A stretch of 64,000 nucleotides of DNA, from positions 2,916-66,915 of IMG/VR virus record IMGVR_UViG_3300022173_000112. One strand, given 5' to 3'. The DNA is from a virus (taxonomy: Duplodnaviria; Heunggongvirae; Uroviricota; Caudoviricetes). The position numbers and the translations under genes are program-made. The first letter of the stretch is position 1, and every line of letters begins with the position of its first letter. A model generated the notes under the pieces. It was given only the letters and a program-made list of their open reading frames with translations. It was not told the DNA's origin and ran no database searches. This document shows, piece by piece, positions 6,183 through 55,478 of this stretch.

Positions 6183-6642
6183 AAATCAAAATAGTTTCAC
6201 CGATTTGTCCCAAAAAATTCACGCGGCCCAAAATTGACCCTACTATTTTCTTTTAATTCTCTATATTCATATCCGAGAAAGAAAGAAAGAAAGAGTTCTA
6301 ATAAAAGAGAAGAGAATTGAAAAAATTAGTAGGCGAGTTCGCCGCGCCGCTCGCAGCATTTGAAATGCCTCTAGGATGCCGTTTCCCGTTGCCAGTTTCG
6401 ACGGGGCCGCGTCCGAAACGTGAAAAGGTAAACTCACCCATTGACCCATCGCAACGCCCTGGCGCGGCATTGTGGAAGTTTCAAAAATTCCCACAAGAAT
6501 TTTTTGGGCGCAAATCGTGAAAGAAAATTGAAAAGAAATGCCGATTACTTGACCACTGACCCATGACGAATGAATCAACGCTCAAGTAATCGGTGTTTGG
6601 AAGTGTGTTTAGACATGACCCATGACTCATGAGTCAACTAAT

Positions 6643-7089
6643 CTACTTCAAATGTTCAGGCGTCACGGTTACAGAATTGTATTTCTTCAATCCGTTCACA
6701 CAACTCACGTACAATTGCAACGCCCGTCTGACTACCTCCGATTCCTTTACTCCCTGCTCAATGGCCATCCGAACCAGTGCATCGTAGGTCGCTTCGGAAA
6801 AGCCGAACTTAACACGAATCAGGTACGCTTCCCGATTGAAACGCTTAGCCGCCTGCACCCTGGCGTCAATCATCTGGCCACGTGTGATCGTGTTCAAGTC
6901 TTCCCACGTAATCCCTACCTCCCGAAGAGCATGAAGGGAATCGACGCTCATATCAACGAGTCGCGGGTTGTCAGGAATCAAGGCCATGATTCTCTTTATC
7001 AGTTCTTCCACGTTCACTCCTAAAAATCTTGACTGTGTTCCTAAAAAAATTCGGGAACGGCTGACTCGCCTCCGGCGGAACGCAGTCAA
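6643..7089 (-). CDS. Hypothetical protein, possible ribbon-helix-helix DNA-binding C-terminus
   Basis: 148 aa. C-terminal segment ...SEVVRRALQLYV... resembles Arc/MetJ/CopG-type RHH. Confidence 0.4.
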   Translation of the reverse strand: MTAFRRRRVSRSRIFLGTQSRFLGVNVEELIKRIMALIPDNPRLVDMSVDSLHALREVGITWEDLNTITRGQMIDARVQAAKRFNREAYLIRVKFGFSEATYDALVRMAIEQGVKESEVVRRALQLYVSCVNGLKKYNSVTVTPEHLK

Positions 7090-7334
7090 GGCAGCGAGTC
7101 CAACTTGGGTGAGACCTTAATCAGTTCGTGTGTATCTTTGACTCTTTGCAACCTTCGACACTCGTCAATGTGTAATCGAATGTCATTGTCCACGTGTCCC
7201 CATGCTTGCATTGGTGGGAATCTCTTGCCGCAGAAGTGGCACCGTGGAATCCACATCTTTTCCTCCGGTGCAGAAGCACACCCACCAAGGAAGGCCACAA
7301 TGAGGGCAACGCAAATCAGGAATCGTGTTGTCAT
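7086..7334 (-). CDS. Putative lipoprotein
   Basis: N-terminal hydrophobic segment ending in a LGGC lipobox. Confidence 0.45.
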   Translation of the reverse strand: MTTRFLICVALIVAFLGGCASAPEEKMWIPRCHFCGKRFPPMQAWGHVDNDIRLHIDECRRLQRVKDTHELIKVSPKLDSLP

Positions 7335-7379
7335 AGCAGTAACACTCCGTTTCCGTACACTTAGGTTGATGCCACCACT

Positions 7380-7616
7380 TCATGAATCTATGAAACCTTT
7401 GACACGTTCGTATGCGTATGGTGGGAATCCCTCAGCTTCATTAAGTACAGCAAGAATCTCTTTTTGACTGACCCATGAACCCTGACGCAAACGTGCGGCA
7501 TCAAGACACTCTTGTTCACCCTTGGACAAAGGTTTCATAGCCTCAAGGTCTTTGATGATCTGCTCAAGTTCGTTGTCCTTGGCACCAGCGGTAATCGCAA
7601 CACATAGTGGGTTCAT
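7380..7616 (-). CDS. Hypothetical protein (78 aa)
   Basis: ORF track. Contains the recurring 12-mer, which encodes GSWVSQ here. Confidence 0.4.
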   Translation of the reverse strand: MNPLCVAITAGAKDNELEQIIKDLEAMKPLSKGEQECLDAARLRQGSWVSQKEILAVLNEAEGFPPYAYERVKGFIDS

Positions 7617-7981
7617 CGAGTTCTCCTGTACTCTGCCGATTCAACGTGTTTACCGTCGACATCGTAACCCCAACTAGGTCGCCTAGGTCCACGTAGAATC
7701 AAGGTCCATGCACCATTGGTTCTGACAACGCGGTGATACTTCTCAGCGGTCCTAAATGTAATCGAACCGCTTTGTCTTTCGTTTAACCTATCACCCACTT
7801 GTTCCAGATATGATCCCCAAAGAATCAGGGACCAGAAGGACCAGGGATGATTATGTTGATGCAGGTCGCCATCAGGTAATAGAATCCTGTGAATGTACAA
7901 CCCGAACCAAGGTAGTTCGATCAGTCGCCAGCGTGTAAAGTGCAGGTTTCCGTTTCGATCACGGATATCGAATCGTTTCAT
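7613..7981 (-). CDS. Hypothetical protein, paralog of 56003..56392
   Basis: Shares LH(Q/D)HNHPW(S/N)F(W/Y)SLILWG(S/G)Y with the second copy. Confidence 0.5.
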   Translation of the reverse strand: MKRFDIRDRNGNLHFTRWRLIELPWFGLYIHRILLPDGDLHQHNHPWSFWSLILWGSYLEQVGDRLNERQSGSITFRTAEKYHRVVRTNGAWTLILRGPRRPSWGYDVDGKHVESAEYRRTR

Positions 7982-8226
7982 GTGTACTCCGCCAACATGA
8001 CGCGAACCTTACGCTTGACAAGGTACTCTTCGCCACTCGACTCAAGTTCTTCGAGCCACACTTCGTCATCGTGTAATTGTAATCGAAGAATTTCGACGTG
8101 TTCGCCGCCAGCGAACGGACCAAATGAACGCTCGAACTGGGCGGCTTCGACACAGATGAATGTCTCATCATCCTGGTCCAGAACGTCACCGTAGATGGTG
8201 ACAATTGTTTCAAGAATCTTTTGCAT
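7978..8226 (-). CDS. Hypothetical acidic protein (82 aa)
   Basis: ORF track. Start overlaps the upstream stop. Confidence 0.4.
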   Translation of the reverse strand: MQKILETIVTIYGDVLDQDDETFICVEAAQFERSFGPFAGGEHVEILRLQLHDDEVWLEELESSGEEYLVKRKVRVMLAEYT

Positions 8227-8229
8227 GTT

Positions 8230-8427
8230 TCACCCTGGGGCAATGACACCACGAGCCACTTCGTCAGGCGTCCGCGACGCCATCATCCTTCGCCAGCATT
8301 CGTCTCTTTCTTCTTGGTGTGCCCGTTCAAATTCGAGCATATCAAGAAGCTCATTCTCTTCCTTGAGACTACGCTCCTTCGCTTGCAGAGCATACCGATC
8401 CTTGTACCAGCTAATCGGTAATGACAT
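8230..8427 (-). CDS. Hypothetical protein (65 aa)
   Basis: ORF track. Confidence 0.3.
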   Translation of the reverse strand: MSLPISWYKDRYALQAKERSLKEENELLDMLEFERAHQEERDECWRRMMASRTPDEVARGVIAPG

Positions 8428-9106
8428 TTTCTTTCCTCAGTTGTTCACAGTAGAACTCCGATTGCTCTATGCCTGTGACCCTTAAAGAAGGATTCAAAAG
8501 GCCAGCACGAAAGCAAGTTCCAGTGCCTGCGAAGTAATCAACAAAAGACCCACCTTCGGGACAACTGTACTTCATGACACGATCATACAAGACGACCGGG
8601 TGTTGCGTCGGGTGCCATGAACGACGCTCAGCAGCATTGCCCACCACTCGGGGGAAGTTCCATACATCTGATGGAATCTTTGGGCCGGCGGCTCGTTCGT
8701 CTCCCATCCGCATCCTTTCGGACTCTTCACGGATTTGATCGGGGAACCCTGACCCCTGACGCTTGATAAGGAGAATAGGACGGTAGCCATGTGACAAATC
8801 CTTCTGGTTGTACTGGCAGAAAGTGTAGAACCAAATGATAGTTCTAATCTCTCTGTCACTATGCCAAATGGCATAATCGTTGGCCCATGCCTTAATGGGT
8901 AAATCCCAAAGGGCATTGTAGCTACACCAGACAATAGGAGCAAGTTCCGTGGCGTGGTTAATCAACCGACAAAGCCACGGAATGTAATCGCTCCGTTTGT
9001 CCGTGTATCCACTGTACTTGAAGCCGATGTTGTCAGGTGGGTCCATGAAGATGCAGTCGGCCTTTTCGTTCCAGTCGTCACACTTGCCGTGAATTAGTTT
9101 GTTCAT
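8411..9106 (-). CDS. DNA methyltransferase (N6-adenine/N4-cytosine, beta-class order)
   Basis: Motif IV-like FMDPPD comes before a FAGTGT (FxGxG) AdoMet motif. 231 aa. Confidence 0.7.
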   Translation of the reverse strand: MNKLIHGKCDDWNEKADCIFMDPPDNIGFKYSGYTDKRSDYIPWLCRLINHATELAPIVWCSYNALWDLPIKAWANDYAIWHSDREIRTIIWFYTFCQYNQKDLSHGYRPILLIKRQGSGFPDQIREESERMRMGDERAAGPKIPSDVWNFPRVVGNAAERRSWHPTQHPVVLYDRVMKYSCPEGGSFVDYFAGTGTCFRAGLLNPSLRVTGIEQSEFYCEQLRKENVITD

Positions 9107-9341
9107 GTTCAGGTATCCAATTCGGTAAGAGTTTGAACTGCACCGACTTCAAGACCTGCATTTCCTGAGCCTGGAAAGCACGGAAATCTTTTTCCCGATT
9201 CGCTTCGGCCCAGGTTGACATTTCATGCTCAGTCTTGAATGTCTTGGCGAGTTCTTCGCCGTGTGCATCTTTCCAAATGACGATGTTCATTTCGGCCTCG
9301 CGTTCTTCAAGATGAAATCCAACACTTGGCCTTCGGCCCAC
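9078..9341 (-). CDS. Hypothetical protein (87 aa)
   Basis: ORF track. Confidence 0.35.
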   Translation of the reverse strand: MGRRPSVGFHLEEREAEMNIVIWKDAHGEELAKTFKTEHEMSTWAEANREKDFRAFQAQEMQVLKSVQFKLLPNWIPEHEQTNSRQV

Positions 9342-9544
9342 TCTTCGGCGTCCCTGACCCCTGACAGGCTGCCCCAGGAATCGCCGTTCCAGTAGGCAGA
9401 GGTAGACCTCTTGTCTCTACGGGCACGTTCCTTCGTTTCCTCGATTCCTTTGAGCAGCTTCTTAGCCCACTCTTTGGGATCAGTTTCTTTTGGCTGGCTC
9501 ACGGTGTAGACCCTCTTGGCGTGATACGCTGCTCTCTGATTCAT
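9287..9544 (-). CDS. Hypothetical protein (85 aa)
   Basis: ORF track. Confidence 0.35.
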   Translation of the reverse strand: MNQRAAYHAKRVYTVSQPKETDPKEWAKKLLKGIEETKERARRDKRSTSAYWNGDSWGSLSGVRDAEEWAEGQVLDFILKNARPK

Positions 9545-9941
9545 TGAGCTTCCCCCGAATCCAGTCAGGTGTCTGGTTGATCTTCTCAGCCAACACTTCG
9601 ATCGACATGCTTTTCAATAGTCGTTTCAAAGCGGTGGCGTACTCAACCGGGGTTGTTGTTATCTTGTGAGCGCAAACAAGAAGTTGCATCTCTTCGATTT
9701 CGACATCACTCATCGACTTGATTTCCGCTGGAATTGTTTTCTTTCCACAGTCAAGCGAAGCGTGATACCGAACCAAACCTGTCACCAGTTGAAACTTCTC
9801 ACCCTTAGGTGCAAGAATCACTGGTGACAGGACACCGAGTTCCTTGACAGATTCAACAAAGGCTTTGTACTCTTTGCTGTTCTTGTCAACGAACTCGGAG
9901 GGTGGTTTCAGGATGTCTTTCAACTTAACCAGCGTGACCAA
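9480..9941 (-). CDS. ParB N-terminal-like (ParB/Srx fold) domain protein
   Basis: LKPPSEF...LSPVILAP...LVTGLVRYHA pattern typical of ParB-like nuclease domains. Lies next to the MTase. Confidence 0.45.
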   Translation of the reverse strand: MVTLVKLKDILKPPSEFVDKNSKEYKAFVESVKELGVLSPVILAPKGEKFQLVTGLVRYHASLDCGKKTIPAEIKSMSDVEIEEMQLLVCAHKITTTPVEYATALKRLLKSMSIEVLAEKINQTPDWIRGKLNESESSVSRQEGLHREPAKRN

Positions 9942-10155
9942 AGCTCACCACCGCAGCGATTGCTGACGTAATAAACCCAGGGACACTCAGGTAAAGCGAC
10001 ATGATCGGTGGGTCCATCAGCACCCATGGCGAAACATGTCCATGGGTCCGGTAGTATTCATCCGGTAGATGACACTCACTGACCCATGACACAAGACAAA
10101 CGCCAGCAAGGAACACGAATCCCAAGCCGACGGGAATGAACCATTTCTTGTTCAT
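9925..10155 (-). CDS. Small membrane protein
   Basis: Two hydrophobic helices. Contains 12-mer copy (VSWVSE). Confidence 0.4.
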   Translation of the reverse strand: MNKKWFIPVGLGFVFLAGVCLVSWVSECHLPDEYYRTHGHVSPWVLMDPPIMSLYLSVPGFITSAIAAVVSFGHAG

Positions 10156-10694
10156 GCTTCACCAATCCCGTCCAAATGGTGGTCTTCGACGAAGGCATCA
10201 CCTTCCCAGGCGTCACCGCGTCGAAGAATCTCTTGGCCGCGGTCCGATTCCGCGAATTCCATCATCTTGGTCATCGGCCCTTGAAGGGCGTTTGGAATCG
10301 CACGGTCGACTTCACCGTAGGAATCCTTGATCGCACGACAGATGCCGATATGCCGGTTGTAGCTATCGGCGGGGTTCACCTTGCTGAACCCGACTCGAAG
10401 CCCTTCTTCATCGTAGAAGACGATGATGGTGCCGATCGGTCGGACCTTGCACAGTTGCTTGGCGTTCTCCACCAAGGTACGGGCTTCGGTGGTCATGACA
10501 ACGCGATCGGTTTGGTCACCGTAATCGCCGTCCTTGACCCGGTCGAACAGGTACTTGGCACGGGCCAGCCAGATCAGGGCCACCTTGGGATAGGTTTCCT
10601 TCTTGACATGCCGCATCAGGTACTTGTGATTCTCAGCGAAGTCACGGAACTCCGCTTTGCACTTTGAAATGTGCAGGTCTCTTGCCTTATTCAT
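10152..10694 (-). CDS. Hypothetical protein (180 aa)
   Basis: ORF track. No recognisable motif. Confidence 0.45.
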   Translation of the reverse strand: MNKARDLHISKCKAEFRDFAENHKYLMRHVKKETYPKVALIWLARAKYLFDRVKDGDYGDQTDRVVMTTEARTLVENAKQLCKVRPIGTIIVFYDEEGLRVGFSKVNPADSYNRHIGICRAIKDSYGEVDRAIPNALQGPMTKMMEFAESDRGQEILRRGDAWEGDAFVEDHHLDGIGEA

Positions 10695-10894
10695 GTCATG
10701 TTCTCCAGTTTGCGTTTGTTGATGTTATGGTCCACCTGGAACATAACCAGCTGCAAGAACTGCGTCACCAGTCCCGGTGTCGCGATTCCTACCATTTGTT
10801 TTATGGTATGGAGGTTATCTTCTGCTCCCGCCCACATCTGATCGAGCGAGGCTTGGTTCGCATTCAGCATCTTCTCGAACTGTTCTTTGTTCAT
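10691..10894 (-). CDS. Hypothetical protein (67 aa)
   Basis: ORF track. Confidence 0.35.
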   Translation of the reverse strand: MNKEQFEKMLNANQASLDQMWAGAEDNLHTIKQMVGIATPGLVTQFLQLVMFQVDHNINKRKLENMT

Positions 10895-11124
10895 TTCATC
10901 AACCTAACTGCGTCGTCCATCTCACAGATTCGCCCGCAGCGTGGACAGATGTAATAGGAATCGGTGTTGTCGTTTTCCAACTGCAACACCTGATGCACGG
11001 TGTACCGGCGACACGGCATACACCAAGGTCGGTACCACCAAATCTTGATCTGTTCCCAGAAGGTCCAAGTCAAGATGCACACCGTGCCAACAAGAATCAC
11101 AATCGCTTGCTTGTCAGTAACCAT
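10891..11124 (-). CDS. Small membrane/zinc-ribbon protein
   Basis: TM helix plus a CxxC...CxxC cluster. Confidence 0.4.
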   Translation of the reverse strand: MVTDKQAIVILVGTVCILTWTFWEQIKIWWYRPWCMPCRRYTVHQVLQLENDNTDSYYICPRCGRICEMDDAVRLMK

Positions 11125-11560
11125 CCCTAATCCCTTTCTTCATCATGTGATCTTGAACCAGACGGGACACCTGACGCCCGACATCATGCTCCACGTAGTT
11201 CAGAATCTTGCACAAAGCCATCGGCTCTTTCCGTGCAGCCCTGAACATACCGAACTCCAGCGATCTCAAATCGATCTGCATGTTGAAGTTCAAGATGTCG
11301 CAAGCGTGGCTCTGGAATGGATGGGCCGAACTAACAGCCGATCTAAAACACTCCAGTTCCTTGTACTTTGAAGTCTCGGACTTGTGGTCTTGGAGCATTC
11401 GGTTGCTCTCGAATTTTGCGGCCGAAAGCTTGGATTCCAAGTCCTTGACTTGTCGTTGCAAGGATTCGATCTCCGAGTTCTTGGAAGCGTTTGAACGCTC
11501 CGAAGTGACTTTGGAGAAACGTAGCCTCTTGCGTAAATTCTTGAGCTTTTTGTTCGGCAT
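11114..11560 (-). CDS. Hypothetical coiled-coil protein (internal start of ORF 11114..11767)
   Basis: Only the C-terminal ~150 aa of the 217-aa ORF look protein-like (ESLQRQVKDLESKLSAAKFE...). Confidence 0.3.
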   Translation of the reverse strand: MPNKKLKNLRKRLRFSKVTSERSNASKNSEIESLQRQVKDLESKLSAAKFESNRMLQDHKSETSKYKELECFRSAVSSAHPFQSHACDILNFNMQIDLRSLEFGMFRAARKEPMALCKILNYVEHDVGRQVSRLVQDHMMKKGIRDGY

Positions 11561-11777
11561 TGGGCACCACCGGGTAATCCAAGAAGTCTTCCATCTGGAA
11601 CGGTGACCAGATTCCAAAAGCCTTCTTCTTGAGTTTGTGCATGATGAAGTATGCCTCCATAGCACACTCACTATCTTTGCCGTACATGGCACCGAACAAT
11701 CGGTCCTTGGCCCGCTTGTACATTTCCATCGCGTTGCACTTCGGGCCGACGGTTGCAAGGAAAGCAAGACTATTCAT
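11343..11777 (-). CDS. Hypothetical protein; frame conflict with 11114..11560
   Basis: The N-terminal ~75 aa look protein-like. The remainder overlaps a better coiled-coil frame. Confidence 0.3.
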   Translation of the reverse strand: MNSLAFLATVGPKCNAMEMYKRAKDRLFGAMYGKDSECAMEAYFIMHKLKKKAFGIWSPFQMEDFLDYPVVPNAEQKAQEFTQEATFLQSHFGAFKRFQELGDRILATTSQGLGIQAFGRKIREQPNAPRPQVRDFKVQGTGVF

Positions 11778-12157
11778 TGTGTGTCCGCTTTCTTGAGCTT
11801 ACCACCGCGGTGGAATTCCAGGCTGGCAATCATCCGACCACAGTGGCCTTGGATGATGATGTGCGAGGTACCGTTTACATGTGGTTGTGGCACTTGAATC
11901 TTGACTTGCGGTACAAGTTTGCAAAGCTCTCGAAGGTGTTCGAGAATCTTATGCTGCTCAGACACAATGGGTCTGACCACTGACACCAGACTCCCGACAT
12001 CGAGACTCGGCTCGACAAGTACCGGGTAGTATGTGTCGGTGTTCCAAACCATATCTCCGATGAGTACATTGCCGTTCTCGACAACCATGTACCCATCGGG
12101 AGTAATCGGTTTCTTCTTAACCATGGAAGCGACCCGCTGGTGTGTACTGATCCGCAC
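11774..12157 (-). CDS. Hypothetical protein (127 aa)
   Basis: ORF track. Confidence 0.45.
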   Translation of the reverse strand: MRISTHQRVASMVKKKPITPDGYMVVENGNVLIGDMVWNTDTYYPVLVEPSLDVGSLVSVVRPIVSEQHKILEHLRELCKLVPQVKIQVPQPHVNGTSHIIIQGHCGRMIASLEFHRGGKLKKADTQ

Positions 12158-12440
12158 GGAAGTGCAACCGAGTCACTTCCTCAAACTGCCGTGGTTCCAT
12201 TTGGATCGCACGGTCAAGGTACTGTTCCTGTTCGTCAGCCGGCAGGCGTGCCAGGTTGTAGCAGTTGACTGCGGGTGCAGCTTCGACCATCTGTTCTTCC
12301 TGGGTCAGGCGACTCAGATTCAGAATCGAAGCAATCGTGTGAGCCGGCACAGCGAGTCGGATACCGATCTCGGCACAGGTATCATTACCTGCGATTCGGA
12401 GGATTTCATCAACGGCGTTCATTCTTAATTTCCTTTTCAA
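12117..12440 (-). CDS. Small ParB-like HTH protein
   Basis: NLSRLTQEEQ...LARLPADEQEQYLDRA matches the LSRLPEEEQLKFLDKA segment of the ParB-like protein at 17991..18899. Confidence 0.4.
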   Translation of the reverse strand: MKRKLRMNAVDEILRIAGNDTCAEIGIRLAVPAHTIASILNLSRLTQEEQMVEAAPAVNCYNLARLPADEQEQYLDRAIQMEPRQFEEVTRLHFRADQYTPAGRFHG

Positions 12441-12949
12441 GTTGTTGAATCTTGGCTTCGCTAGAAAGCACAGCCAAGATCAGGAGGATGATCCAGAACC
12501 AGAGCCAGAATCTTGATCGTTTCTTTTTTGACACAGGTTCCCCACGGAAATAGGCAACCCAAGTGACTTGGCCGCTAATCGTACCGCTGTTGTCAGCTTC
12601 CGATCAGGCGGGCAAATACACTTCGGGTTATTGCAGAACGTCTTGTCTTTGTAGCTAATCATGTTACCCCACCAGGTGTTGGTCTGATTTCCACTCTGTG
12701 AGTAGACTCCAGATCAGAGTGAATGGGTTGGAGCAACAGTGCATCCAACAACCGTAACTGGCTACCCAGCATGGCCCATGACTAATGACGCCAGCTTTCT
12801 CACGCCGGATTCTCACTTCTTCTGCTCCAATTTTTCCAGCCGCAGTTGAAGCTGTCGGCGTTCCTTCGCTTCATCAGCGATACAGCCACCGACAAAATTG
12901 CCGATGAGCAAGCCGACGAAAACGAGAGCGGTGTTAATTGCGATGTTCT

Positions 12950-13342
12950 TCATTCGCTGATTCCTTGTGTTTGAAACAAAGCGTCATAGTACGCCTTGTA
13001 GTCGCTGTGAAGGAACTCGGTGTAGTGGTGGACACCCACCTTACCCGAGCCGAAGTCGCTGCCCAAGACGCCAGCCAATTGATTCGGGTTCACCATACGG
13101 GCATCGTAGGTGTAGCAGTAGCTCTGGTCCGTGCTGAACCCATGAAAGATCAACTTCGCATGGACAGGATGGATCACGATTCCTGCTTCTTCGGAACACT
13201 CACGAATGGCGGCTTGTCGGAAAGTCTCGCCGGGATCAACCTTGCCGCCCGGCAGGATGACACCGCGACCCTTGGAACATTGAAGACCAAGAATCTTGCC
13301 ACCTTCAAGCCGGATCAACATTGCGGTTCCGATGATAATCAT
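12950..13342 (-). CDS. Nudix hydrolase
   Basis: Nudix box GGKVDPGETFRQAAIRECSEEAGI. Start taken at internal MIIIG, since the upstream part of the ORF overlaps the next gene. Confidence 0.7.
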   Translation of the reverse strand: MIIIGTAMLIRLEGGKILGLQCSKGRGVILPGGKVDPGETFRQAAIRECSEEAGIVIHPVHAKLIFHGFSTDQSYCYTYDARMVNPNQLAGVLGSDFGSGKVGVHHYTEFLHSDYKAYYDALFQTQGISE

Positions 13343-13593
13343 TTGCCTACCAGGTAAAGAGAAACGATGTTGTACGTCATGACCGCAAGGATCAGGACAC
13401 AGATGATTGTTGCACAGCACATGTAGAAAACCGATTCCGAACTTGCCCGTAGATTGGGTAAACCCACGGCAGGACGTACAGCACACGGACCTTCGTGGCC
13501 TTCTTTACGGGAGCAAATCCAACCAGCAGGCGGCTTGTCACAACTCATCCTGGCACCCTCGTATCGTCGTAAGGAATGTTGGGATAGAGACAC
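13339..13593 (-). CDS. Small protein with C-terminal TM helix
   Basis: ORF track. Stop and start overlap the Nudix gene. Confidence 0.35.
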   Translation of the reverse strand: MSLSQHSLRRYEGARMSCDKPPAGWICSRKEGHEGPCAVRPAVGLPNLRASSESVFYMCCATIICVLILAVMTYNIVSLYLVGK

Positions 13594-13898
13594 GCTGCAA
13601 ACTCAAGCTTGATCGGTTCATAACCAAGCATGAGCAAGTGACACTTGAAATCTTCCCAAGTCGATTCCGGGTGTGCACGTTTCCAATCTTCTTGGGTCTT
13701 GACCATCGGTTCTTCCGTGCCAAACCAAGCTTCGCCGTTCACGATATGAATCATGCCCGGCTTCTTCAAACCCATGTACCATCTGGTCCACTTGCCATCA
13801 ATGAAGACATCGTAGCCACCATTCTTTGGTTTCAAATGCACGCAGCATGGTCCACGATTCTCTTTGACGAGACGTTGATAATCGTGCCAGTTGTTCAT
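13545..13898 (-). CDS. Hypothetical protein (117 aa)
   Basis: ORF track. Confidence 0.45.
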   Translation of the reverse strand: MNNWHDYQRLVKENRGPCCVHLKPKNGGYDVFIDGKWTRWYMGLKKPGMIHIVNGEAWFGTEEPMVKTQEDWKRAHPESTWEDFKCHLLMLGYEPIKLEFAACLYPNIPYDDTRVPG

Positions 13899-14110
13899 TG
13901 GAGCGTGACCTCATGTGTGAACTTAATCACATCACCGTTGAGCGGGGCACCAGCTTGAATGAAGCCGAGCCGTTCAATCGAACCGACACACATCAGTTCC
14001 GTATTGTTGTGGCATGGGTGGTAATCTTGTTTCTTACCACGTACTTCAAGCTCTGCGACACCTTTGAGGCTTTCACCTTGGTGAGGGCAATCGCTGCACT
14101 TGGGTCTCAT
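13895..14110 (-). CDS. Hypothetical Cys/His-rich protein (71 aa)
   Basis: ORF track. Confidence 0.4.
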   Translation of the reverse strand: MRPKCSDCPHQGESLKGVAELEVRGKKQDYHPCHNNTELMCVGSIERLGFIQAGAPLNGDVIKFTHEVTLQ

Positions 14111-14415
14111 CGAAGCACTCCTTGAATTTCATTGCCGGTTTTCAATCCACGTTGACGATTCACTTCAATGAATCGAGCAATGTCTTGTGGAGCCATCTTA
14201 CGAGTCTCTTCGATCATCTTGCTAACCGCAAGAATCGTGCCTTCGAGACCTGGACCTTGAGCCGATGCGACAATCTTTCGGCTTCGCAGTCCACCTTTGA
14301 ATCGGTGAACAGCTACGTAGTACAGTTCCTTACTGGCCAGATAGCTGACCATGACGCCCGGAGCGATACGATCGCCTCGGTATATCCTGGCGATTTGTGC
14401 GAGTAGCTCTCTCAT
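14107..14415 (-). CDS. Hypothetical protein (102 aa)
   Basis: ORF track. Confidence 0.45.
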   Translation of the reverse strand: MRELLAQIARIYRGDRIAPGVMVSYLASKELYYVAVHRFKGGLRSRKIVASAQGPGLEGTILAVSKMIEETRKMAPQDIARFIEVNRQRGLKTGNEIQGVLR

Positions 14416-14982
14416 AATGTACCTTGTGTATACAGGCCGTGGAAACCGAAGCTGTCCTTGTACGGTTCATTCTCAACCGAGAATCGCCGAGCAAGTTCAA
14501 TGGGTGCGAACTTCACACCGTGACTCTCTAGCTCTTCACGGTAGTTGACACAGATTCGCCAGTCTTCCGGGTGTGGATTGCCTGGGTTTATCTTTGTCAA
14601 TGCGTGCAATAGCCGCTGACCCCCTGAGACTAAACCCACCATTCCCGACACCTGCACCGTGACACCAAGGTGCCCCGATGTAATCGTATTTCAGAAACTC
14701 ACCAGTCCATGCTCTCGGGTTCACAATGTAACCATCGTGTTGTACTGTGAGGATATGATCCTCAAACATTACTCGATAGTTAGGGAGGTCGAGGATCATG
14801 AACTCGGAGTATTCCTCCATGCTCTTGATCTGAGGAATCGTGATGCAAGTGACGCCTTTGATGTTCTGGCGTTCGTGCGTGAACAAGTATGCATCGCGAA
14901 AGGCAAACTTGTTCATGCAATCTTTCATCACCTTGATCGTTGCTTCAACATACAAGCAGTCAACGGCTACGAGACTGATCAT
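14412..14982 (-). CDS. DUF5672-like (glycosyltransferase-like) protein, interrupted by a -1 frameshift at a G5 run near 14620-14624
   Basis: Frame 1 ends ...DYIGAPWCHGAGVGNGGFSLR. Frame 2 continues QRLLHALTKINPGNPHPEDW... Read together they give the GNGGFSLR-(S/G)-R-L-L arrangement I recall for this family. The two frames meet at GGGGG. Confidence 0.4.
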
Positions 14983-15683
14983 CCTTGCCTCACGATCGGG
15001 TGACCCAAGCAGCTATAATGTAGCCGCTTGTAGCTTGAGTTATGGATCATGCAATTCTGGAACATCGTGTAGTTGAAACCCAAGTCAACTATGTCCACGA
15101 ACCTATGAGGGTGTTGACTCTTGATGTTCACAATCGCTTTGGTGTAAGCAATCGGACCACACAATCTCAACACACCAATCTTGCCAACACCCATGTAAGG
15201 TTGGTAGTCTTTGATGTTCCGAATGACACTACCGATTACTTCTTTCAAGAATGGATGTCCTTGACGCGTGACAATATGCCACTGTTGAAACTCTTGGTAT
15301 GGTTCCAACTCTTCAAAGAACCCTGCACCAGGATTCCGATGTTGGTTCCAGTACGAAAGGATGTACTCGTCATCATCCCTTAGTACACTGTCCAGCGGTA
15401 CGTCAACCGTGGACTTGATATCCAAATAGACCCCACCCGTATGGTACATCAGAAGATACCGAAAGAAGTCGGCTCTCGCAGGACCATAAGCTGGGTCAAG
15501 TGATTCGTAGACCGGGAGCAGGTCGTTGTAATGATGATCGATAAAAGTTTGAATATCGTGGTCATCATATAACCTGTAGCTCCAACCGGGATTTAACCTC
15601 TTTAACTTCTGTGCGTTTTCTACGAACGCAGGGTTGATCTCACTCTTACTTGGCAGAGTTTGGTGAATGATCTTGGGAATCAT
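14979..15683 (-). CDS. Glycosyltransferase, GT32-like (DXD sugar-binding family)
   Basis: N-terminal IPKIIHQTL and ADFFRYLLMYHTGGVYLDI, typical of the Och1/capsule GT sugar-binding region. Confidence 0.6.
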   Translation of the reverse strand: MIPKIIHQTLPSKSEINPAFVENAQKLKRLNPGWSYRLYDDHDIQTFIDHHYNDLLPVYESLDPAYGPARADFFRYLLMYHTGGVYLDIKSTVDVPLDSVLRDDDEYILSYWNQHRNPGAGFFEELEPYQEFQQWHIVTRQGHPFLKEVIGSVIRNIKDYQPYMGVGKIGVLRLCGPIAYTKAIVNIKSQHPHRFVDIVDLGFNYTMFQNCMIHNSSYKRLHYSCLGHPIVRQG

Positions 15684-15737
15684 GGAACCCTATAGTTAAT
15701 GTGGCCCAGTCTTTCGACTGGGCCACGGACACACGTA

Positions 15738-17084
15738 TCACGATCCAGGTGGAAGGACAACGGGAGGCTGAGGCGGCGGAATCACAGGTGCCGGACATGC
15801 AGCCAGCACTCGGGAAAACGCCTGCATCGCTTGCTTGTACTCGTTGTTGTAACGAGTCATGACCGGACCAGCATCAGTGCCAGCCAACGCCGTCTGTGCC
15901 GAGTTCATCGGAGTTGCCGGGTTGTCCAGCATTCCAACGATTCGGGCAACATCACGCTGAGCATTCGCCGGGGTAATTGCCCCGGTGTAAAGCTGCTGTT
16001 GCATGGTGCGGAAGTACCGCTCCATCATGTCCATGCCTTCGCCGGTGCGTTCGTTGATTGCACGACCGATCGAAGTCGGTCCCAACCAAGTCTCGCCACG
16101 GGCTGCACGCAACGCTTCGATCAGACGGTCGATCGCGACAACGTAGAACAGCGTGCAAGGATTTGCCATCGCTGCCATACGGCCACGAGTCTCGAACTGG
16201 AAGCAGTCCTGAATGAGGCGTCGTTCCGCACGGGCACGAGCTTCAATCAGCGGATCGAAAATCCGGTCCAGTTCTCGCTGACCAGCAGGACCAATGACAC
16301 CGCGTCGATTCGGCAGCAGTTCACGGTAGCGTCGTTCAAGGGCTTGAATTGCGGCGAACATCGCCTGGATTTCAGCCTTGAGCAACTGGCAGATGCCAGC
16401 ACCGTCAACACGCATTGTGCGAATCGCTTCGCAACGTGCGAGCAAAGCAGACGCAGCACGCTCGATGTCGTTCATGCTCGTCAACTGAGAGATGCTCTCA
16501 ATCAACTGAACACCAACGGCCACGATCATCACCGAGACACCCGCAGTACGGATGACTCGTGACACCGCACTCACGCCGGCTGCCCGATTTGCGGCGGCAG
16601 CTTCACCCTCAAGCTGAGCAGCAAGCCGCTCAGTCTGTTGTTCAAGAGCTTGCATCTCTTGAACGAGACGTTGATATTCGGCCGGCGTCAACCGTTGCGT
16701 TTCAACGATTCGTGTGGCTTGTTCAGCCGTCTCACCGAATCGTTGCATACGCGTTCGGACTTGAGCCTCGAACGTCGGAGCCTCAGCATCGGGGATGCGA
16801 ATCGGTCGGCCATTCACGATACCAGGTCCTTCCGGGTTCAATGGTCCGCGAATCGCAGGTTGGGCATTGGCCAGGTCAGCCGCAGCTTGACGAGCAGCGA
16901 ATGCCTCAATGTCTCTGACGTATTGCGTCATGTCATTGAGACGATCGATTGCTCGACCATACGCACCGGCCATTTCCGCTGCCAAAGCAGCGTCACCACC
17001 GGCGTTCACTTGGGCAGCACCCGTACCGGCCATTCCAGGTCCAGTAGGGATGCTGTCTTGTGGAGGTCTGATAGGATCAGGCAT
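15738..17084 (-). CDS. Hypothetical Ala/Gln/Arg/Pro-rich protein with one TM segment (448 aa)
   Basis: Long ORF in a markedly GC-rich stretch. Coiled-coil-like composition. No catalytic motif seen. Confidence 0.5.
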   Translation of the reverse strand: MPDPIRPPQDSIPTGPGMAGTGAAQVNAGGDAALAAEMAGAYGRAIDRLNDMTQYVRDIEAFAARQAAADLANAQPAIRGPLNPEGPGIVNGRPIRIPDAEAPTFEAQVRTRMQRFGETAEQATRIVETQRLTPAEYQRLVQEMQALEQQTERLAAQLEGEAAAANRAAGVSAVSRVIRTAGVSVMIVAVGVQLIESISQLTSMNDIERAASALLARCEAIRTMRVDGAGICQLLKAEIQAMFAAIQALERRYRELLPNRRGVIGPAGQRELDRIFDPLIEARARAERRLIQDCFQFETRGRMAAMANPCTLFYVVAIDRLIEALRAARGETWLGPTSIGRAINERTGEGMDMMERYFRTMQQQLYTGAITPANAQRDVARIVGMLDNPATPMNSAQTALAGTDAGPVMTRYNNEYKQAMQAFSRVLAACPAPVIPPPQPPVVLPPGS

Positions 17085-17096
17085 GAAGAAGTTTCC

Positions 17097-17954: not shown

Positions 17955-17990
17955 GAATCAATCTCCAAAACGGTTTCAACACAACACGGG

Positions 17991-19464: not shown

Positions 19465-19605
19465 TCAAATCCTCTTTCCTTAAAGCCGCCCTGAGGCGTT
19501 TGCTGGAGTTCCTCTTCGCTCGCCGAATCTTACCACGGCGACTGGTGATGCACCCTGCATCGTTACTTTGCGTAATGGTTCTTGCAACCATTTCTTTTCG
19601 ACGCA

Positions 19606-19944
19606 TCATTTCTCCGCGTAAATGTGCCAGACATATTCGCCTTCAATGACCGTGCCAATGAAGCGACAGTCTTTTGGAATCTCACCGCATCCCGTCCCGA
19701 CGGAATACAGGATCATCGTTTCACCGAGTTCGTCAGGGTCAACCTCGAACCAGACCATCACGGTGTCAACGCCTTTGACTTTTTGAAGTCCGACGCTCAG
19801 AGCCTTTGCACCACGACGAGCGGGAATCTTGAGCTTCCAAGTCGTGCCGTGTTCCGCGTCGGGTCGAATCGGTGCCTTCCAAATCGTCTTCATGCTACGA
19901 CTCCCAGAGTAATTTGTGCCTTCTTCACACAAAGAGCGGCACAA
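19606..19944 (-). CDS. Hypothetical protein (112 aa)
   Basis: ORF track. Confidence 0.4.
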   Translation of the reverse strand: MCRSLCEEGTNYSGSRSMKTIWKAPIRPDAEHGTTWKLKIPARRGAKALSVGLQKVKGVDTVMVWFEVDPDELGETMILYSVGTGCGEIPKDCRFIGTVIEGEYVWHIYAEK

Positions 19945-37935: not shown

Positions 37936-37961
37936 GACATAGACACCCTCCAAGAGAGGAA

Positions 37962-46873: not shown

Positions 46874-47829
46874 ATGGCTTCGAATTCCTCGTCACGCATT
46901 CCGACCGATTGCTGGTCGAGAGTCTTGCAGCGGGCTTGCGACTGCTCCAGCGTCATGTTTCGGAAGATGTGGTCACTGTTGACAACATCCCAAATATGTT
47001 GAGCCAGAGAGAACGTATGCCACTGGAAGGTCTCACTGATTCGCAACCGATGTTCAGCAATCCGAATACTCGGTTTGATGCCACCCGGTTTGCAAACCAA
47101 CTGGTCAATCGCAGTCACAAAGTCACTTCCGACTTCGTTACCGCACAGCCATCCGTAGATGGCCAACTGGACAGCCCAGCTTTCGTTCAGTTCTTCGAGA
47201 CGTTGGTCTCGGTTAATCAGAATCCCGTGGTGCGGGGCGATGATGCAGTTCTTGTGTGGGCCGCTGAAATCGGCACCACGAATCCGCAAGTAACCCGGCA
47301 TCGGGCTGATTCCCGACTTGCTACAGTAGCCATTCACCTTGAAGTCCAAGGTGACATTGATTCCACTTTTGTGGTTGAAGGACACGTCCGGTTTTCCCAG
47401 GAACGTGACCCCTGACAAACTCTTCGTGACGCCTTCTTTTTGTCCGTTGACCACGCCACGAACTTCGATTTCAAACCGCGGTGTACCAACCGCTTGTTCC
47501 AGGTCCGACATCAGGTCAGCCAAGGCTCCCGAGTGCTTGTAGCAATCGAAAGCGTGACGGCCGTTGTCCCATGCCCAGTCCCAATGGTGTCGTTCGACTT
47601 GAGCTTCAAAGAGCGTTCTCAAATCGAACCGTGGGTCATTGCCTTTACCGAACAATGCTTCGTGCATCCAACTCTTCACGTAAGCATCGAAGGCGGACCC
47701 AATCGACATTGGCTGAGTTTGTTTGTCTCGCGTCGGACGATTCTCAGAAAGATATCTGAGATAGTAGCTCTCAACATTCTCTTTGAAAGCTGCGATGCTC
47801 GTCGGGCTGAGGTACTCAAGCTTCCTCAT
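46858..47829 (-). CDS. PD-(D/E)xK-family nuclease (RecB/Cas4-like exonuclease)
   Basis: N-terminal LSPTSIAAF...YLRYL, a D...DFKV core, and a C-terminal Cys cluster. Confidence 0.45.
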   Translation of the reverse strand: MRKLEYLSPTSIAAFKENVESYYLRYLSENRPTRDKQTQPMSIGSAFDAYVKSWMHEALFGKGNDPRFDLRTLFEAQVERHHWDWAWDNGRHAFDCYKHSGALADLMSDLEQAVGTPRFEIEVRGVVNGQKEGVTKSLSGVTFLGKPDVSFNHKSGINVTLDFKVNGYCSKSGISPMPGYLRIRGADFSGPHKNCIIAPHHGILINRDQRLEELNESWAVQLAIYGWLCGNEVGSDFVTAIDQLVCKPGGIKPSIRIAEHRLRISETFQWHTFSLAQHIWDVVNSDHIFRNMTLEQSQARCKTLDQQSVGMRDEEFEAICRSY

Positions 47830-48463
47830 TGTTGCTCCTTAAGAATCGGTTCTTGATGACATCGAAGATGCGACTAGCAGTCACGTAGTTAATACCCGTC
47901 AGTTCCTGAATTTCCCTAAAGGTATAACCCTGACACTTCAAGTCGAAAATCTTTCGTTCCTCTTCCGTCAATACGGCAAGCTGAATCTCTTCATCAAGAA
48001 TCATCTTACGGAGCGGACTGATCTCTCTGCCAGCAACTTCCCGGTTAGGCAGAATCTTTTTGTCTTTTTGTCCAATCTCATACCTCGCATGGGTTGACAG
48101 CGGAATCAACCGATCTCGATGTATGAACCGACCACACGCTTCATGTATCTTGTAGGACACAAACTTCCCGAAGGAATCAGTGTTCATCTTGTGGATGTCG
48201 TGACAGGCTTGAACCAAAGCGAGAGCACCCTCACTTACGAGGTCTTTCGATTTCTTAGGTTCCAAAGCTCCGTAGCATCCAGCGATGTACACGACCAGTT
48301 TCAAGTGACCGGCCACAATCTCTTCGATGACACTCTTATCCCCAGCCTTGAGCTTGACTACCAGTTCGGCTAATCGCTCATCAGTAATCCGAGGCGAAGG
48401 ACTTTTCCCAAACGGATAGTGAATCGAACACGGCCTTGCTTTCTTACCGAGTAGGAACATCAA
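47816..48463 (-). CDS. Sigma-70-family sigma factor
   Basis: Region 2-like DLVSEGALALVQA and region 4 HTH LTEEERKIFDLKCQGYTFREIQELTGINYVTASRI. Confidence 0.65.
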   Translation of the reverse strand: MMFLLGKKARPCSIHYPFGKSPSPRITDERLAELVVKLKAGDKSVIEEIVAGHLKLVVYIAGCYGALEPKKSKDLVSEGALALVQACHDIHKMNTDSFGKFVSYKIHEACGRFIHRDRLIPLSTHARYEIGQKDKKILPNREVAGREISPLRKMILDEEIQLAVLTEEERKIFDLKCQGYTFREIQELTGINYVTASRIFDVIKNRFLRSNNEEA

Positions 48464-51426: not shown

Positions 51427-51427
51427 C

Positions 51428-51510: not shown

Positions 51511-51511
51511 A

Positions 51512-52968: not shown

Positions 52969-53353
52969 GCAACCAAATCATGATTTCAGGAGTGATAGTA
53001 CACTTCCGGTAGGTAGGACCGTAAGGTCTATCAGGTCTTTCCTGAACCCAAGTGGCTCGATCCGTGAGCCACTTGATTCGGTCGGTGATCTTTTCATTGG
53101 TGCTGTCATGGACCTCAACTACTTTGACTCTGACATTGCAGATTTCAAAGTAGCAGAGATAACCCTGACGCATTGGATCATAGGTGATTAGGAAATCACC
53201 CATGCCTAACAACACATTGCGGTCCTTCGCAATATCGTTCGTCGATACCATCTGATCCACGTAGTTTGGACCAGTCAATGGGTTTGATTCGGAGCAGACG
53301 GTCGTTGTACTCATCCTCAGTGATCCCTTCTTCGGGCATCTGTGCATACACAC
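52925..53353 (-). CDS. Hypothetical protein (142 aa)
   Basis: ORF track. Confidence 0.4.
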   Translation of the reverse strand: MCMHRCPKKGSLRMSTTTVCSESNPLTGPNYVDQMVSTNDIAKDRNVLLGMGDFLITYDPMRQGYLCYFEICNVRVKVVEVHDSTNEKITDRIKWLTDRATWVQERPDRPYGPTYRKCTITPEIMIWLHELQRLVEMEPRRW

Positions 53354-55478
53354 CCTTCGGTGTAATCGGCAACATTGCCACGCTCTTCGTCAATGGTGCA
53401 ATGCTCGACAAGACCGGCTCGATATCATCTTCCTCATGGTTCTCGTCGTACTCGTAGATTTTCACTTCGACATTCTCAGAGAACTCGAACGTGGCTTTGA
53501 ACTCACGGAACGAGTTAATGCTGGGAAGCTTCTTGTTGAAAACCTCAATACGCTCGGCGAGACTCATGTACTGGTCGAGTACCGAATCAGCTTGCAGGAA
53601 GTTCTGCACAGTCGGCCACAGGTGATATTTCAGATTCCACTTCGGACGGAAGTTCAACGTGTTACTCACAGCGTTGTCCGACCATTCCCGTTGCAGCAAG
53701 CACAACATGCTTGCCTGTTCCCACAGACTGACTTTCTTGAAGCCAGTCTTATGAACAGGGAACTCGAAAATTTCTGTGCCCTTCGGGTCCGTGACATCCG
53801 GTTCGTGAGGCACGCCAGCATCAAGAAGAATCTGATACACTGGCGAGTTTCTCGACAACCGTACCCGACGAATCATGAACTCGAAGTTCGGACGATTGAA
53901 CCCTGAGTTCTGACCTGGGAGATTCGGAGTCGTACCACCGGGCTTGATGGTGGTGTGACGAATCGGGTCAGGGATACCAGCTTCCGAGTTGCACCAGTGA
54001 CCGACGTTGCGAACCTTCTCGTAACCCTTACGCAGATTCGCAATCAGCTTGTGGGTTCCGATCTTGTCGGACCATTCGGCCACGTTGATGATGCTACCGC
54101 CGATGCGTCGATTACGGTACATCACACTATTGGTTTCAGGGCGATGCGTCGGAAGCAAGGTTACAGTCGTCGCATACACCGTAGCGTATTCGACGGCTCG
54201 GAGCCATGCCTCGTCGGTCTTGCATCGCATCGGAATCGTTTCGACAAGAGTACAAAGCTCTTTGTCTTCGAGTGGTTGCTCTCCGCACGGATTAAAAGCG
54301 ATAGCTTTATCCAGACGAAGCCCATCCATCGACTTACCGATACGACCGAATGGCAAGTTAACCTTATTGATGTATCCAGGCTCGCCATTGAGAATCACCC
54401 TTTTTGCAATCTCGCCAAGACGTTCGAAGTCTTCGCTGGTTTCCAGGAACACCGAGTTGTTCGACATGTAGCCCCAGTCCTTGCGGTAGGGATACTTGTC
54501 GTACTGTTTCAGGTCCATCACTTCATCGATTGTTCCCGCACAGAGTTCGGCTGATCGTCGGACATTGCCCGCCACCACGCAACAGCCAGTACAATTGGCA
54601 AGGTCAGTCTTAAGAAGAACCGAGTCATACCATTCCTCACAGGCATACTGTTCCATCAGCATTTCAATGCGTTGATGGAACTTGATCAGGGGAGCCGGAC
54701 CAGAACAGACGCCACCGAATCCACGAATCGGGGCACCCTCTTCACGAATCTCGTCGTAGATGAATCTCGGCTTCGGGGAACCTTTTTCCCGGAAACTCGT
54801 AATCAGGGCTTTGGTGGAATCACACCAACCTTCACGACTGTCAGGGATGACATAGTCGTAAGTTCCCTTCGGATTGTAGACCGTCAATTCATCTTGACGT
54901 TCGGGTAGGAATCCTACACCAACGCCGCACATGAGCATATCCATCATCCAATGGATATCGTTCTCAAGTGTTTCACCGATGATTGTGAATCCACAATTTT
55001 GAAGAGCAGCCGAACCGCGTTCGTAAACGAAGTCCGAACCCATCGCCCAGAGTCCACGACCCGGAGGCAGCCATTCCATCTTGTACATCGACACCGCGAA
55101 GTGGCGAGCGTACACCTGCCAGAATGATTCGTCCCACGGAATATGGTTCTTGATGTACCAGTCCTTGCGGATCGAGAACGTACCTTGAACCGCACGGATG
55201 ATTGTGTCCGGCCACCACTCTTGACAAGTCTCCAAATCGTTTGGAAGAAAGATGTCATTCGAGTTGGCAACCTGACCCCTGCCGCAAGAACCACAATACT
55301 CCTTGCCCGTAATCGGGTTGAGTTTGATAGACGGCTGGCGACAATTTTTGCAGATGTTTCGCGAGTACGTCCTGAAATACAGGAACTCTCCGAAACCGTT
55401 ATAGCCGAAGTCTGGAATCATCGAGCGGATTTCTTCCAGCGTCGACTCTACGAGTTTGAATCGTTCTTTAACAAACAT
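53196..55478 (-). CDS. Ribonucleotide reductase, class II-like
   Basis: NPCGEQPL active-site motif. 760 aa. N-terminal CxxC...CxxC zinc ribbon. Confidence 0.55.
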   Translation of the reverse strand: MFVKERFKLVESTLEEIRSMIPDFGYNGFGEFLYFRTYSRNICKNCRQPSIKLNPITGKEYCGSCGRGQVANSNDIFLPNDLETCQEWWPDTIIRAVQGTFSIRKDWYIKNHIPWDESFWQVYARHFAVSMYKMEWLPPGRGLWAMGSDFVYERGSAALQNCGFTIIGETLENDIHWMMDMLMCGVGVGFLPERQDELTVYNPKGTYDYVIPDSREGWCDSTKALITSFREKGSPKPRFIYDEIREEGAPIRGFGGVCSGPAPLIKFHQRIEMLMEQYACEEWYDSVLLKTDLANCTGCCVVAGNVRRSAELCAGTIDEVMDLKQYDKYPYRKDWGYMSNNSVFLETSEDFERLGEIAKRVILNGEPGYINKVNLPFGRIGKSMDGLRLDKAIAFNPCGEQPLEDKELCTLVETIPMRCKTDEAWLRAVEYATVYATTVTLLPTHRPETNSVMYRNRRIGGSIINVAEWSDKIGTHKLIANLRKGYEKVRNVGHWCNSEAGIPDPIRHTTIKPGGTTPNLPGQNSGFNRPNFEFMIRRVRLSRNSPVYQILLDAGVPHEPDVTDPKGTEIFEFPVHKTGFKKVSLWEQASMLCLLQREWSDNAVSNTLNFRPKWNLKYHLWPTVQNFLQADSVLDQYMSLAERIEVFNKKLPSINSFREFKATFEFSENVEVKIYEYDENHEEDDIEPVLSSIAPLTKSVAMLPITPKGVYAQMPEEGITEDEYNDRLLRIKPIDWSKLRGSDGIDERYCEGPQCVVRHG

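Follow-up and report, generated by a model that had tools for sequence, protein, structure and literature searches.

A heptad repeat oriented with transcription in an uncultured large phage and its relatives

A DNA window of 64 000 nucleotides from an uncultured large phage (IMG/VR record IMGVR_UViG_3300022173_000112, positions 2916 to 66 915) contains an over-represented 12-mer which was noticed in a first-pass annotation of the sequence. Analysis of the window and of related contigs identified this 12-mer as the strongest form of a dyad phased at 7 nt, TGAC-N3-TGAC. Written on the sense strand, the unit is K-G-N-G-T-C-A, with an invariant GTCA every 7 nt and at least two units in succession, that is, (K-G-N-GTCA)n. 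The heptad periodicity, the arrays and the conservation in relatives had been overlooked previously. The units are putative binding sites of a protein encoded by the phage.

The opening 5.8 kb of the window contain small genes on the plus strand, and beyond about 6.6 kb, as far as the right end, all genes belong to a single, tightly packed block on the minus strand (92% covered by open reading frames (ORFs), with many overlaps of 4 nt). Between them, where the blocks converge, lies a non-coding zone (5770–6640). Unless stated otherwise, the copies described below have their sense on the minus strand.

Phasing and enrichment of the heptad

The 12-mer CTGACCCMTGAC was found six times as an exact match (6556, 8749, 9354, 10079, 27224 and 29220; 0.02 expected from dinucleotide shuffles) and 13 times at up to one mismatch (0.56 expected), always on the plus strand, bearing out the over-representation reported in the first-pass annotation. 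The list of copies given there was essentially right, but several coordinates were 1–3 nt off, the copies at 22540 and 50000 require two mismatches and a copy at 11973 had been missed. A literature search for the 12-mer returned primers only.

Among gapped pairs of 4-mers in the whole window, TGAC-N3-TGAC was the most enriched, with 21 occurrences on the plus strand and 3 on the minus strand against an expectation of about two (2.1). The spacing spectrum of TGAC on the plus strand had its sole peak at 7 nt (21 pairs), with 1–5 pairs at the other spacings between 4 and 13 nt. Beside the 21 perfect dyads there were 27 near-exact 11-mers in 58 kb. The central triplet of the dyad varied freely, and the commonest heptad in the window was TGGGTCA. 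When the sites were aligned, a weaker additional heptad appeared on both sides, more clearly on the 3' side on the plus strand, which is upstream in the sense direction. This extension of the phasing into flanking heptads points to cooperative units rather than one long word. Runs of three to five units were visible at 6549–6576, 6616–6640, from 11974 onward and at 27225–27249. G-quadruplexes were considered and ruled out, as most sites have a single run of G.

At the end of the minus block, an exact 12-mer (6556–6567; sense GTCATGGGTCAG) lies in the loop of a terminal hairpin within a four-heptad array (6549–6576) and is kept in the relatives L167, L170 and L172. Directly 3' of the last gene of the block is a three-heptad array (6615–6640) which includes the perfect palindrome TGACTCATGAGTCA at 6623–6636. 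A one-mismatch copy with further heptads next to it lies within ORF 7380–7616 (7468–7479). Exact copies are present in the DNA methyltransferase gene (8749–8760), about 14 nt upstream of the start of gene 9078–9341 (9354–9365) and, in the frame encoding S-W-V, at 10079–10090; all three are the same in L170 and L172, the last with different flanks. A one-mismatch copy, TGACCACTGAC (11973–11984), heads about five degenerate heptads. It is followed by the dyads TGACTAATGAC (12779–12789, preceded by TGGCCCA and the same in L170), TGACGCGTGAC in a glycosyltransferase gene (15262–15272), TGACTCGTGAC (16553–16563) and TGACACGTGAC in a Dda-like helicase gene (22215–22225, kept in L170 and L173). Further along are a one-mismatch copy in a ThyX-like gene (25269–25280), an exact copy heading three to four heptads, TGACCCA TGACGCC TGACCCT TGCC (27224–27249), an exact copy in the S-W-V frame (29220–29231) and a one-mismatch copy that contains the ATG start codon of the dCMP deaminase gene 29777–30262 (30254–30265). 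The dyads TGACCCTTGAC (34390–34400), TGACGCCTGAC (34732–34742 and 37493–37503) and TGACCACTGAC (41366–41376) lead to a one-mismatch copy at 47405–47416, the first perfect dyad of the block in transcription order, just downstream of a sigma-factor gene. A one-mismatch copy in the ribonucleotide reductase gene (55272–55283) is not a perfect dyad.

Seven copies (7468, 10079, 27224, 29220, 30254, 38733 and 50000) encode the tripeptide S-W-V and the remaining 12-mer copies sit in other reading frames, as had been noted before. The earlier proposal that selection acts on the nucleotide sequence was upheld by shuffling the minus-strand genes, which hold 18 sense dyads: synonymous-codon shuffles that kept the proteins gave 2.2 ± 1.3 dyads, codon-order shuffles gave 0.85 ± 0.9, and no shuffle gave more than 6. 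The shuffled counts are so far below 18 that protein sequences appear to have been bent to hold the word. If the word is regulatory, it strongly shapes coding sequence, with 18 copies against the 2 that the encoded proteins alone would yield. Other 9-mers of the window, CGCGGTGTC and AAGCTCAAG, are enriched via frequent tripeptides and fall nearly always in one frame, which shows that peptide-driven enrichment does occur here, and stop codons account for part of the orientation bias described below. The dyad, in contrast, uses all three reading frames, and copies and arrays are present in non-coding DNA. Codon and dipeptide bias, which had been named as an account that would overturn the finding, as well as amino-acid usage and chance, are therefore refuted as its source by the shuffles that kept proteins and codons, together with the identity of orthologous sites, and we give this explanation practically no weight.

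The first-pass annotation also considered a recognition site for modification or restriction. The phage encodes an N6/N4-class DNA methyltransferase (8411–9106), and the heptads TGAGTCA and TGACTCA contain GANTC. However, the commonest heptad of the window, TGGGTCA, does not, a recognition site of this kind predicts no enrichment, and methylation gives no reason for an enrichment of 10–20-fold, for the heptad phasing or for the orientation. A methyltransferase or restriction/modification target is thus a highly improbable explanation.

Conservation, orientation and distribution of the sites

Searches of phage reference collections revealed no close relative of the window, either by DNA or by polymerase protein. 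Many relatives were present in metagenomes, mostly from freshwater samples, on contigs of 60–125 kb, and the loci surrounding their methyltransferase gene and their last minus-block gene were compared with the window. The enrichment recurred in relatives at 70–90% protein identity. Contigs L170–L172 (83% methyltransferase identity) contained 12–15 sense dyads where 0.3–0.7 were expected, and L173/L174 (70% identity, 44% GC) contained the dyad 12–17 times; counts in about 13 kb each were 15 in L170 and 17 in L173 (0.7 expected). The dyad ranked first or second among gapped motifs in both groups. L175 (70% identity, 42% GC) had three dispersed dyads, yet a three-heptad array was found just after its last gene. 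Arrays in this position, present in the window, L167, L168, L170, L173 and L175, are the most conserved feature of the system. In relatives at 35–60% identity (L001–L043) the motif was absent and no analogous phased dyad was found.

The 11-mers at 22215, 12779, 10080, 9355, 8750 and 6557 were identical to their counterparts in L170/L172, which are about 80% identical in nucleotide sequence, while their flanks carried substitutions. Other dyad sites were lineage-specific. The combination of shared and lineage-specific sites indicates a turnover of sites during which number and orientation were kept. Judged by these alignments, the sequence of the sites is under purifying selection and is conserved across the lineage. 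In L173 the commonest unit was TGAGTCA rather than TGGGTCA, and its terminal zone has two arrays of four to five such units. The TGAGTCA heptad is almost a palindrome, a form that would suit a symmetric dimer bound to double-stranded DNA.

The orientation of the sites tracked transcription in every block sampled and flipped wherever transcription flipped. Dyads in the minus block were 18 sense to 2 antisense, and copies in plus blocks were all sense (1:0 in the window, 3:0 in L173, 2:0 in L171/L172 and 6:0 in L176). All 12-mers with at most one mismatch are on the plus strand, as the strict co-orientation reported earlier would have it, but one dyad copy is reversed: GTCAGTGGTCA at 5848–5858, the sole copy of opposite orientation, which has its sense on the plus strand. 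It lies 3' of the last plus-strand gene, is kept in L168 and L170, and is in the sense orientation for the plus block. The reversed word has TGA in two of its three frames, so that coding alone predicts a 3:1 bias. The orientation bias is real, but it is coupled to the direction of transcription and is partly trivial. Near-exact 11-mers (26 sense, 0 antisense) exceeded the 3:1 ratio (p about 6e-4), and the non-coding copies, which are free of the stop-codon constraint, were all in sense orientation.

A coupling to transcription might reflect an element in RNA, with an RNA-binding protein reading (KGNGUCA)n in the sense transcript and repressing translation, stabilising or processing the message or preventing termination. 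Sense orientation in all blocks and in non-coding copies would then follow automatically, which is the simplest account of it; several sites precede a start codon by 14–26 nt or overlap with a ribosome-binding site, two copies are in hairpin loops of 3' untranslated regions, and the phage encodes a Ro60/TROVE-like protein and an RNA ligase. Against this, folding predicted that the sites are no more accessible in RNA than control positions, and rather less so, the near-palindromic L173 heptad, like the palindrome at 6623–6636, is better suited to double-stranded DNA, and no candidate for an RNA-binding reader was identified. We regard an RNA-level element as rather unlikely.

Non-coding DNA makes up only about 8% of the block, yet roughly one-third of the sites fall between genes or no more than 26 nt from a start codon, an enrichment of roughly fourfold. 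Promoters for a phage RNA polymerase or sigma factor were considered and rejected, as the distance to the start codon ranges from 0 to more than 500 nt with no conserved partner element; sites that include the ribosome-binding site or start codon also count against a promoter role. All perfect dyads of the minus block lie within 6.5–47.4 kb (about 41 kb), downstream in transcription order of the gene for a phage sigma-factor homologue (47816–48463, minus strand). The replication-gene region (48–64 kb, with its continuation in the close relative L044) had almost no dyads, and none that was perfect between 47.5 and 64 kb. In L176/L177 a second, divergent non-coding zone, termed zone 1, lies about 6–7 kb past the left end of the window, and the 10 kb of large, probably structural genes beyond it contained no dyads. 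Density is highest in the final 7 kb of the minus block, where it exceeds one per kb, and declines with distance from the convergent zone.

This gradient would fit a polar DNA signal acting from a fixed point, with the zones as genome ends, packaging site or replication terminus and the word as a Chi-like stop for an exonuclease or a guide for a translocase or fork. Orientation flips across the convergent zone, and all copies would be approached from the 3' side by an enzyme that entered at this point; the two zones share a conserved box, as the boundaries of terminal repeats might, and genes for a RecD/Dda-like helicase and a PD-(D/E)XK nuclease are present in the phage. Chi, KOPS and the polar words of chromosomes resemble the heptads in being over-represented and strand-specific, with an orientation that flips at a special point of the replicon. 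They are, however, single host words of 5–8 nt which are read by RecBCD/AddAB or FtsK over the whole replicon, whereas the heptads form a phased repeat that is peculiar to a phage lineage and restricted to about 41 kb and two zones. Moreover, no copy was found in the 10 kb of the block past zone 1, where there is thus no gradient, and the second flip, at zone 1, would need another special point only 12 kb away. The ideas of Chi-like, packaging or replication-polarity signals put forward in the first-pass annotation found no direct support and fit poorly with heptad repeats confined to one class of genes, and we consider such a signal unlikely.

Priming or nicking sites on one strand, used by the phage primase on the lagging-strand template or resembling the nicks of T5 or Pseudomonas phage tf, would be another source of strand asymmetry. 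T7 primase prefers the pentamers GGGTC or TGGTC, either of which is contained in the sense strand, and the nick consensus sequences of other phages are confined to one strand. A gene for a D5-like primase-helicase is located just past the right end of the window in L044, and the mean spacing of the sites, about 2.8 kb, is within the range of Okazaki fragments. A primase, however, needs 3–5 nt, neither a phased dyad nor arrays; the spacing is strongly clustered rather than regular, the 16 kb of replication genes lack a perfect dyad, and no nickase was identified. These points make primase or nick sites quite improbable.

A candidate reader and a possible effect on transcription

Phased contiguous units, with a minimum of two, together with arrays in non-coding DNA, a near-palindromic unit and purifying selection point to sites of an oligomerising sequence-specific protein. 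A candidate for this protein is the product of the last minus-block gene (6643–7011, minus strand; 122 amino acids), a gene that adjoins the arrays in every relative sampled. The C-terminal part of the polypeptide (IRVKFGFSE...GVKESEVVRRALQLYV) looks like a ribbon-helix-helix (RHH) domain. Its match to RHH_1 was weak and below the Pfam cut-off (E = 0.007–0.05); three of six homologues matched RHH_1, at best with E = 9.5e-5. The presumed DNA-reading beta-strand has the sequence RVKFGF in combination with the heptad TGGGTCA, and RVKFNF in L173 with its heptad TGAGTCA. This correlation of one residue (G to N) with one base (G to A) reflects a single event and is treated as a lead only. The neighbouring gene encodes a protein of 259 amino acids with a weak match to AAA_16 and no relative in the PDB.

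Two known systems offer partial models. Phages of mycobacteriophage cluster A contain more than 20 asymmetric stoperators whose orientation follows transcription, and reversal of a site abolishes repression (PMC9283540). Like the heptads, the stoperators of L5, Bxb1 and TipsytheTRex are short asymmetric sites, at least 20 in number, that are oriented with transcription in opposite arms (PMC9283540). Stoperators also occur in short intergenic spaces and promoter regions (PMC9283540), which may have a counterpart in the intergenic third of the heptad sites. They differ in being single 13-bp sites, mostly intergenic, which are bound in temperate phages by a monomeric repressor with a helix-turn-helix (HTH) and a stoperator domain; the heptads form a phased 7-nt repeat, are found in one class of genes only, two-thirds of them within genes, and occur where no such repressor or lysogeny functions were seen. 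In the second system, one 7-bp unit is recognised by an RHH dimer, the omega protein of pSM19035, whose binding is tight where two or more units are contiguous (PMC9499535). The omega (ParB) heptads are likewise contiguous, non-palindromic 7-bp units, direct or inverted, and they form multi-unit arrays in non-coding control regions; at least two units are required for tight binding, and the reader is a small RHH protein (PMC9499535), as may also be the case for the phage heptads. Their arrays of 7–10 units are restricted to three promoters, which serve as centromeres with a ParA partner, whereas the heptads of the phage are mostly two-unit sites, dispersed in genes in fixed orientation, with no ParA found and a weak RHH match. 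The reader proteins and contexts that define the two families were not found here, and the heptad network is therefore best filed as a variant of oriented operator networks that belongs to neither.

Taken with these likenesses, the heptads may be binding sites of a phage-encoded sequence-specific protein, possibly the RHH-like protein of 6643–7011, that acts directionally on transcription; we favour this reading, but only tentatively. One protein unit would occupy each heptad and bind cooperatively with its neighbours, and the protein of 6643–7011 would do so in the manner of omega on its 7-bp heptads. Once bound, it would hinder the elongating RNA polymerase in an orientation-dependent way, as a roadblock, shut-off or boundary comparable to repressors at stoperators. 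The sigma-dependent middle block would be closed down after expression of its last gene, and the bound protein would mark the end of the block, with an operator role at the arrays of the boundary zones. Put together, this would be a direction-sensitive heptad code embedded in the coding sequence of about 41 kb of middle genes and read by the product of the last gene, with the tasks of timing when the whole block is shut off and of delimiting it, similar to stoperators in effect but of independent origin, with a different reader fold and outside lysogeny. In this complete form the proposal is speculative, and we would not expect all of it to hold.

Several observations weigh against binding by this protein or against an effect on transcription. 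The orientation within genes is in part forced by TGA, and the 18:2 ratio of perfect dyads does not go beyond 3:1 (p = 0.09). About two-thirds of the sites lie inside genes, which is unlike stoperators. The divergent start of the minus block, as seen in L044, is without sites, and the sites are thus not promoter operators of that block. The RHH assignment is weak, as the E-values of the window protein (0.007–0.05) and an AlphaFold pLDDT of 57 indicate, and a profile search of the PDB with the candidate reader gave designed repeat proteins and MazE6, the latter only at E = 1.2. The link between gene and sites consists of adjacency and the one correlation of amino acid and base (dispersed sites alone: not significant, p = 0.16), and L175 has the RHH gene but only three dispersed dyads. 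Finally, in a scan of a selection of ORFs, about 60 window proteins compared with Pfam or PHROGs (with about 64 of about 112 kb covered), no repressor or immunity context, integrase or ParA was detected, nor was an immunity repressor with HTH and stoperator domain.

Oriented genome-wide networks of binding sites acting on elongating RNA polymerase have so far been essentially a matter of one group of temperate mycobacteriophages. If the directional reading is correct, uncultured freshwater phages of 110–125 kb would provide a second, unrelated example, built of 7-nt repeats and largely within genes, and polar site networks would be a more general means of controlling long gene blocks.

Non-coding zones and other features of the phage

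The hairpin at the end of the minus block (6541–6593, minus strand) has a 12-bp stem (6541–6552/6582–6593) and a 29-nt loop carrying the heptads, in agreement with the earlier description of a hairpin with the motif in its loop, and a U-rich tract follows on the minus strand. In relatives the stem was kept and the loop was enlarged by additional copies of the motif. On the other side of the convergent zone, a perfect 20-bp inverted repeat of GTCA units (5834–5853/5866–5885), which includes the copy at 5848–5858, is located 3' of the last plus-strand gene; directly after it, a strong intrinsic terminator with a 16-bp stem and a T-run (5896–5930) ends the plus block. In zone 1, three to six co-oriented copies lie upstream of a gene and a copy of opposite orientation lies on the other side: three copies of GTCATGAGTCAGGGTTA and degenerate ones aim at the leftward gene and GTCATGGGTCAGTGGTCATG aims at the rightward block of small genes.

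The arrays in these zones also recall packaging regions. P1 pac is made up of hexamers, TGATCA/G, that hold GATC, and heptamer arrays of T7 adjoin the terminal repeat; in both, units of 6–7 nt are arrayed in a non-coding region. The two arrays of four to five units in L173, separated by a short spacer, are similar to P1 pac, and their units hold GANTC as those of P1 hold GATC. The P1 and T7 arrays differ in that they are found only in the packaging or end region, with no copies dispersed through genes.

A conserved box, AAGAATTTTTTGGGCG-N-AAA-N-CGTGAAAGAAAA (6496–6527), adjoins the arrays and is nearly invariant in the terminal zones of L170 and L173 and in the second non-coding zone, as seen in L176. 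It can also be written AATTTTTTGGGCG-N-AAA-N-CGTGAAA, about 30 nt, with the L176 copy at 450–480. On the plus strand, both zones have the same order of conserved box, hairpin with the motif complement and U-rich stretch, as might be expected if a small antisense RNA from the non-coding zones exposed the complementary CUGACCCAUGAC in its hairpin loop and paired with the dispersed sites as targets. The flanks of the dispersed sites, however, are only heptad-periodic and have no longer stretch complementary to a single RNA, the central triplet is free to vary, no promoter-like site precedes the box and Rfam gave no match. An antisense RNA is very improbable on these grounds. No sigma-70-like promoter was found at the arrays or before the box.

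The non-coding zones on either side of the small-gene block both contain further copies of CGTGAAA/TTTCACG, which point in both directions. Box A of P1 ParB is ATTTCAC, which the unit recalls, and the phage has several ParB-N proteins. Possible roles of the box and the CGTGAAA units are those of a boundary, an origin, a centromere or a packaging site. The middle of the convergent zone contains a purine-rich simple repeat, (GAAA)n or (GA)n, at 6270–6295, which is also present, with variable length, in L168, L173 and L175.

The minus block encodes a family A DNA polymerase, helicases, ribonucleotide reductase, DNA and RNA ligases, a Ro60/TROVE-like protein, a ThyX-like protein, dCMP deaminase, glycosyltransferases, several ParB-N proteins and a DNA methyltransferase, in addition to the sigma-factor homologue and eight tRNAs. 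The phage is apparently lytic. The Ro60/TROVE-like protein is encoded at 35737–37188 (minus strand) and tRNA-His at 37961–38035; together with the RNA ligase genes, the former suggests a module for RNA repair or quality control, and a search against Rfam identified no Y RNA. Genes for NUDIX (12950–13486), glycosyltransferase-like (14536–15683), ThyX-like (25093–25890), NT5C (27873–28415) and dCMP deaminase (29777–30262) proteins form a set that is typical of phages which replace or decorate a pyrimidine of their DNA. GCGC is strongly avoided (36 against 163 expected), and GANTC is twice as frequent as predicted from base composition. At 14600–14640 (minus strand), a DUF5672 glycosyltransferase-like gene is broken across two frames at AGTCTCAGGGGGTCAGCGG, a run of five Gs within a version of the motif that is one base longer; a real frameshift, a pseudogene or a sequencing error in the homopolymer might each account for the split.

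In the plus block (455–5012), nearly every small gene is preceded by a cassette, with copies centred near 507, 1247, 2616, 3243, 4457 and 4959. It consists of a hairpin, an invariant CGGAAGCGCC, about 15 nt, a ribosome-binding site and the ATG. The hairpin stem covaries between copies, for example, CTACCCAG/CTGGGTAG and CTTCCCAG/CTGGGAAG, and the cassette was found in 14 copies in L175 and in 8–9 copies in L176. A role as promoter, terminator or processing signal is possible, in what would be an early gene block of the host-takeover type.

Two further repeat systems were noted in other viral contigs. A scan of IMG/VR for the three-heptad pattern retrieved unrelated contigs of 54–68% GC (L061, L063, L087, L095, L121, L136, L137, L151, L161 and L164) with many intergenic arrays of TGACYCC, and no protein was shared with the window in the stretches compared. 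These arrays are long, with up to 14 or more units, and mostly co-oriented; some pair with inverted arrays to form hairpins before genes. They apparently represent a separate, undescribed repeat system, which has the unit TGACCCC in common with the window motif. In the distant relative L003, the 16-bp palindrome GTGCAA-N4-TTGCAC was found at eight sites in 866–19941, one every 2–3 kb, which look like parS/KorB-type sites for a ParB-HTH protein of this phage group.

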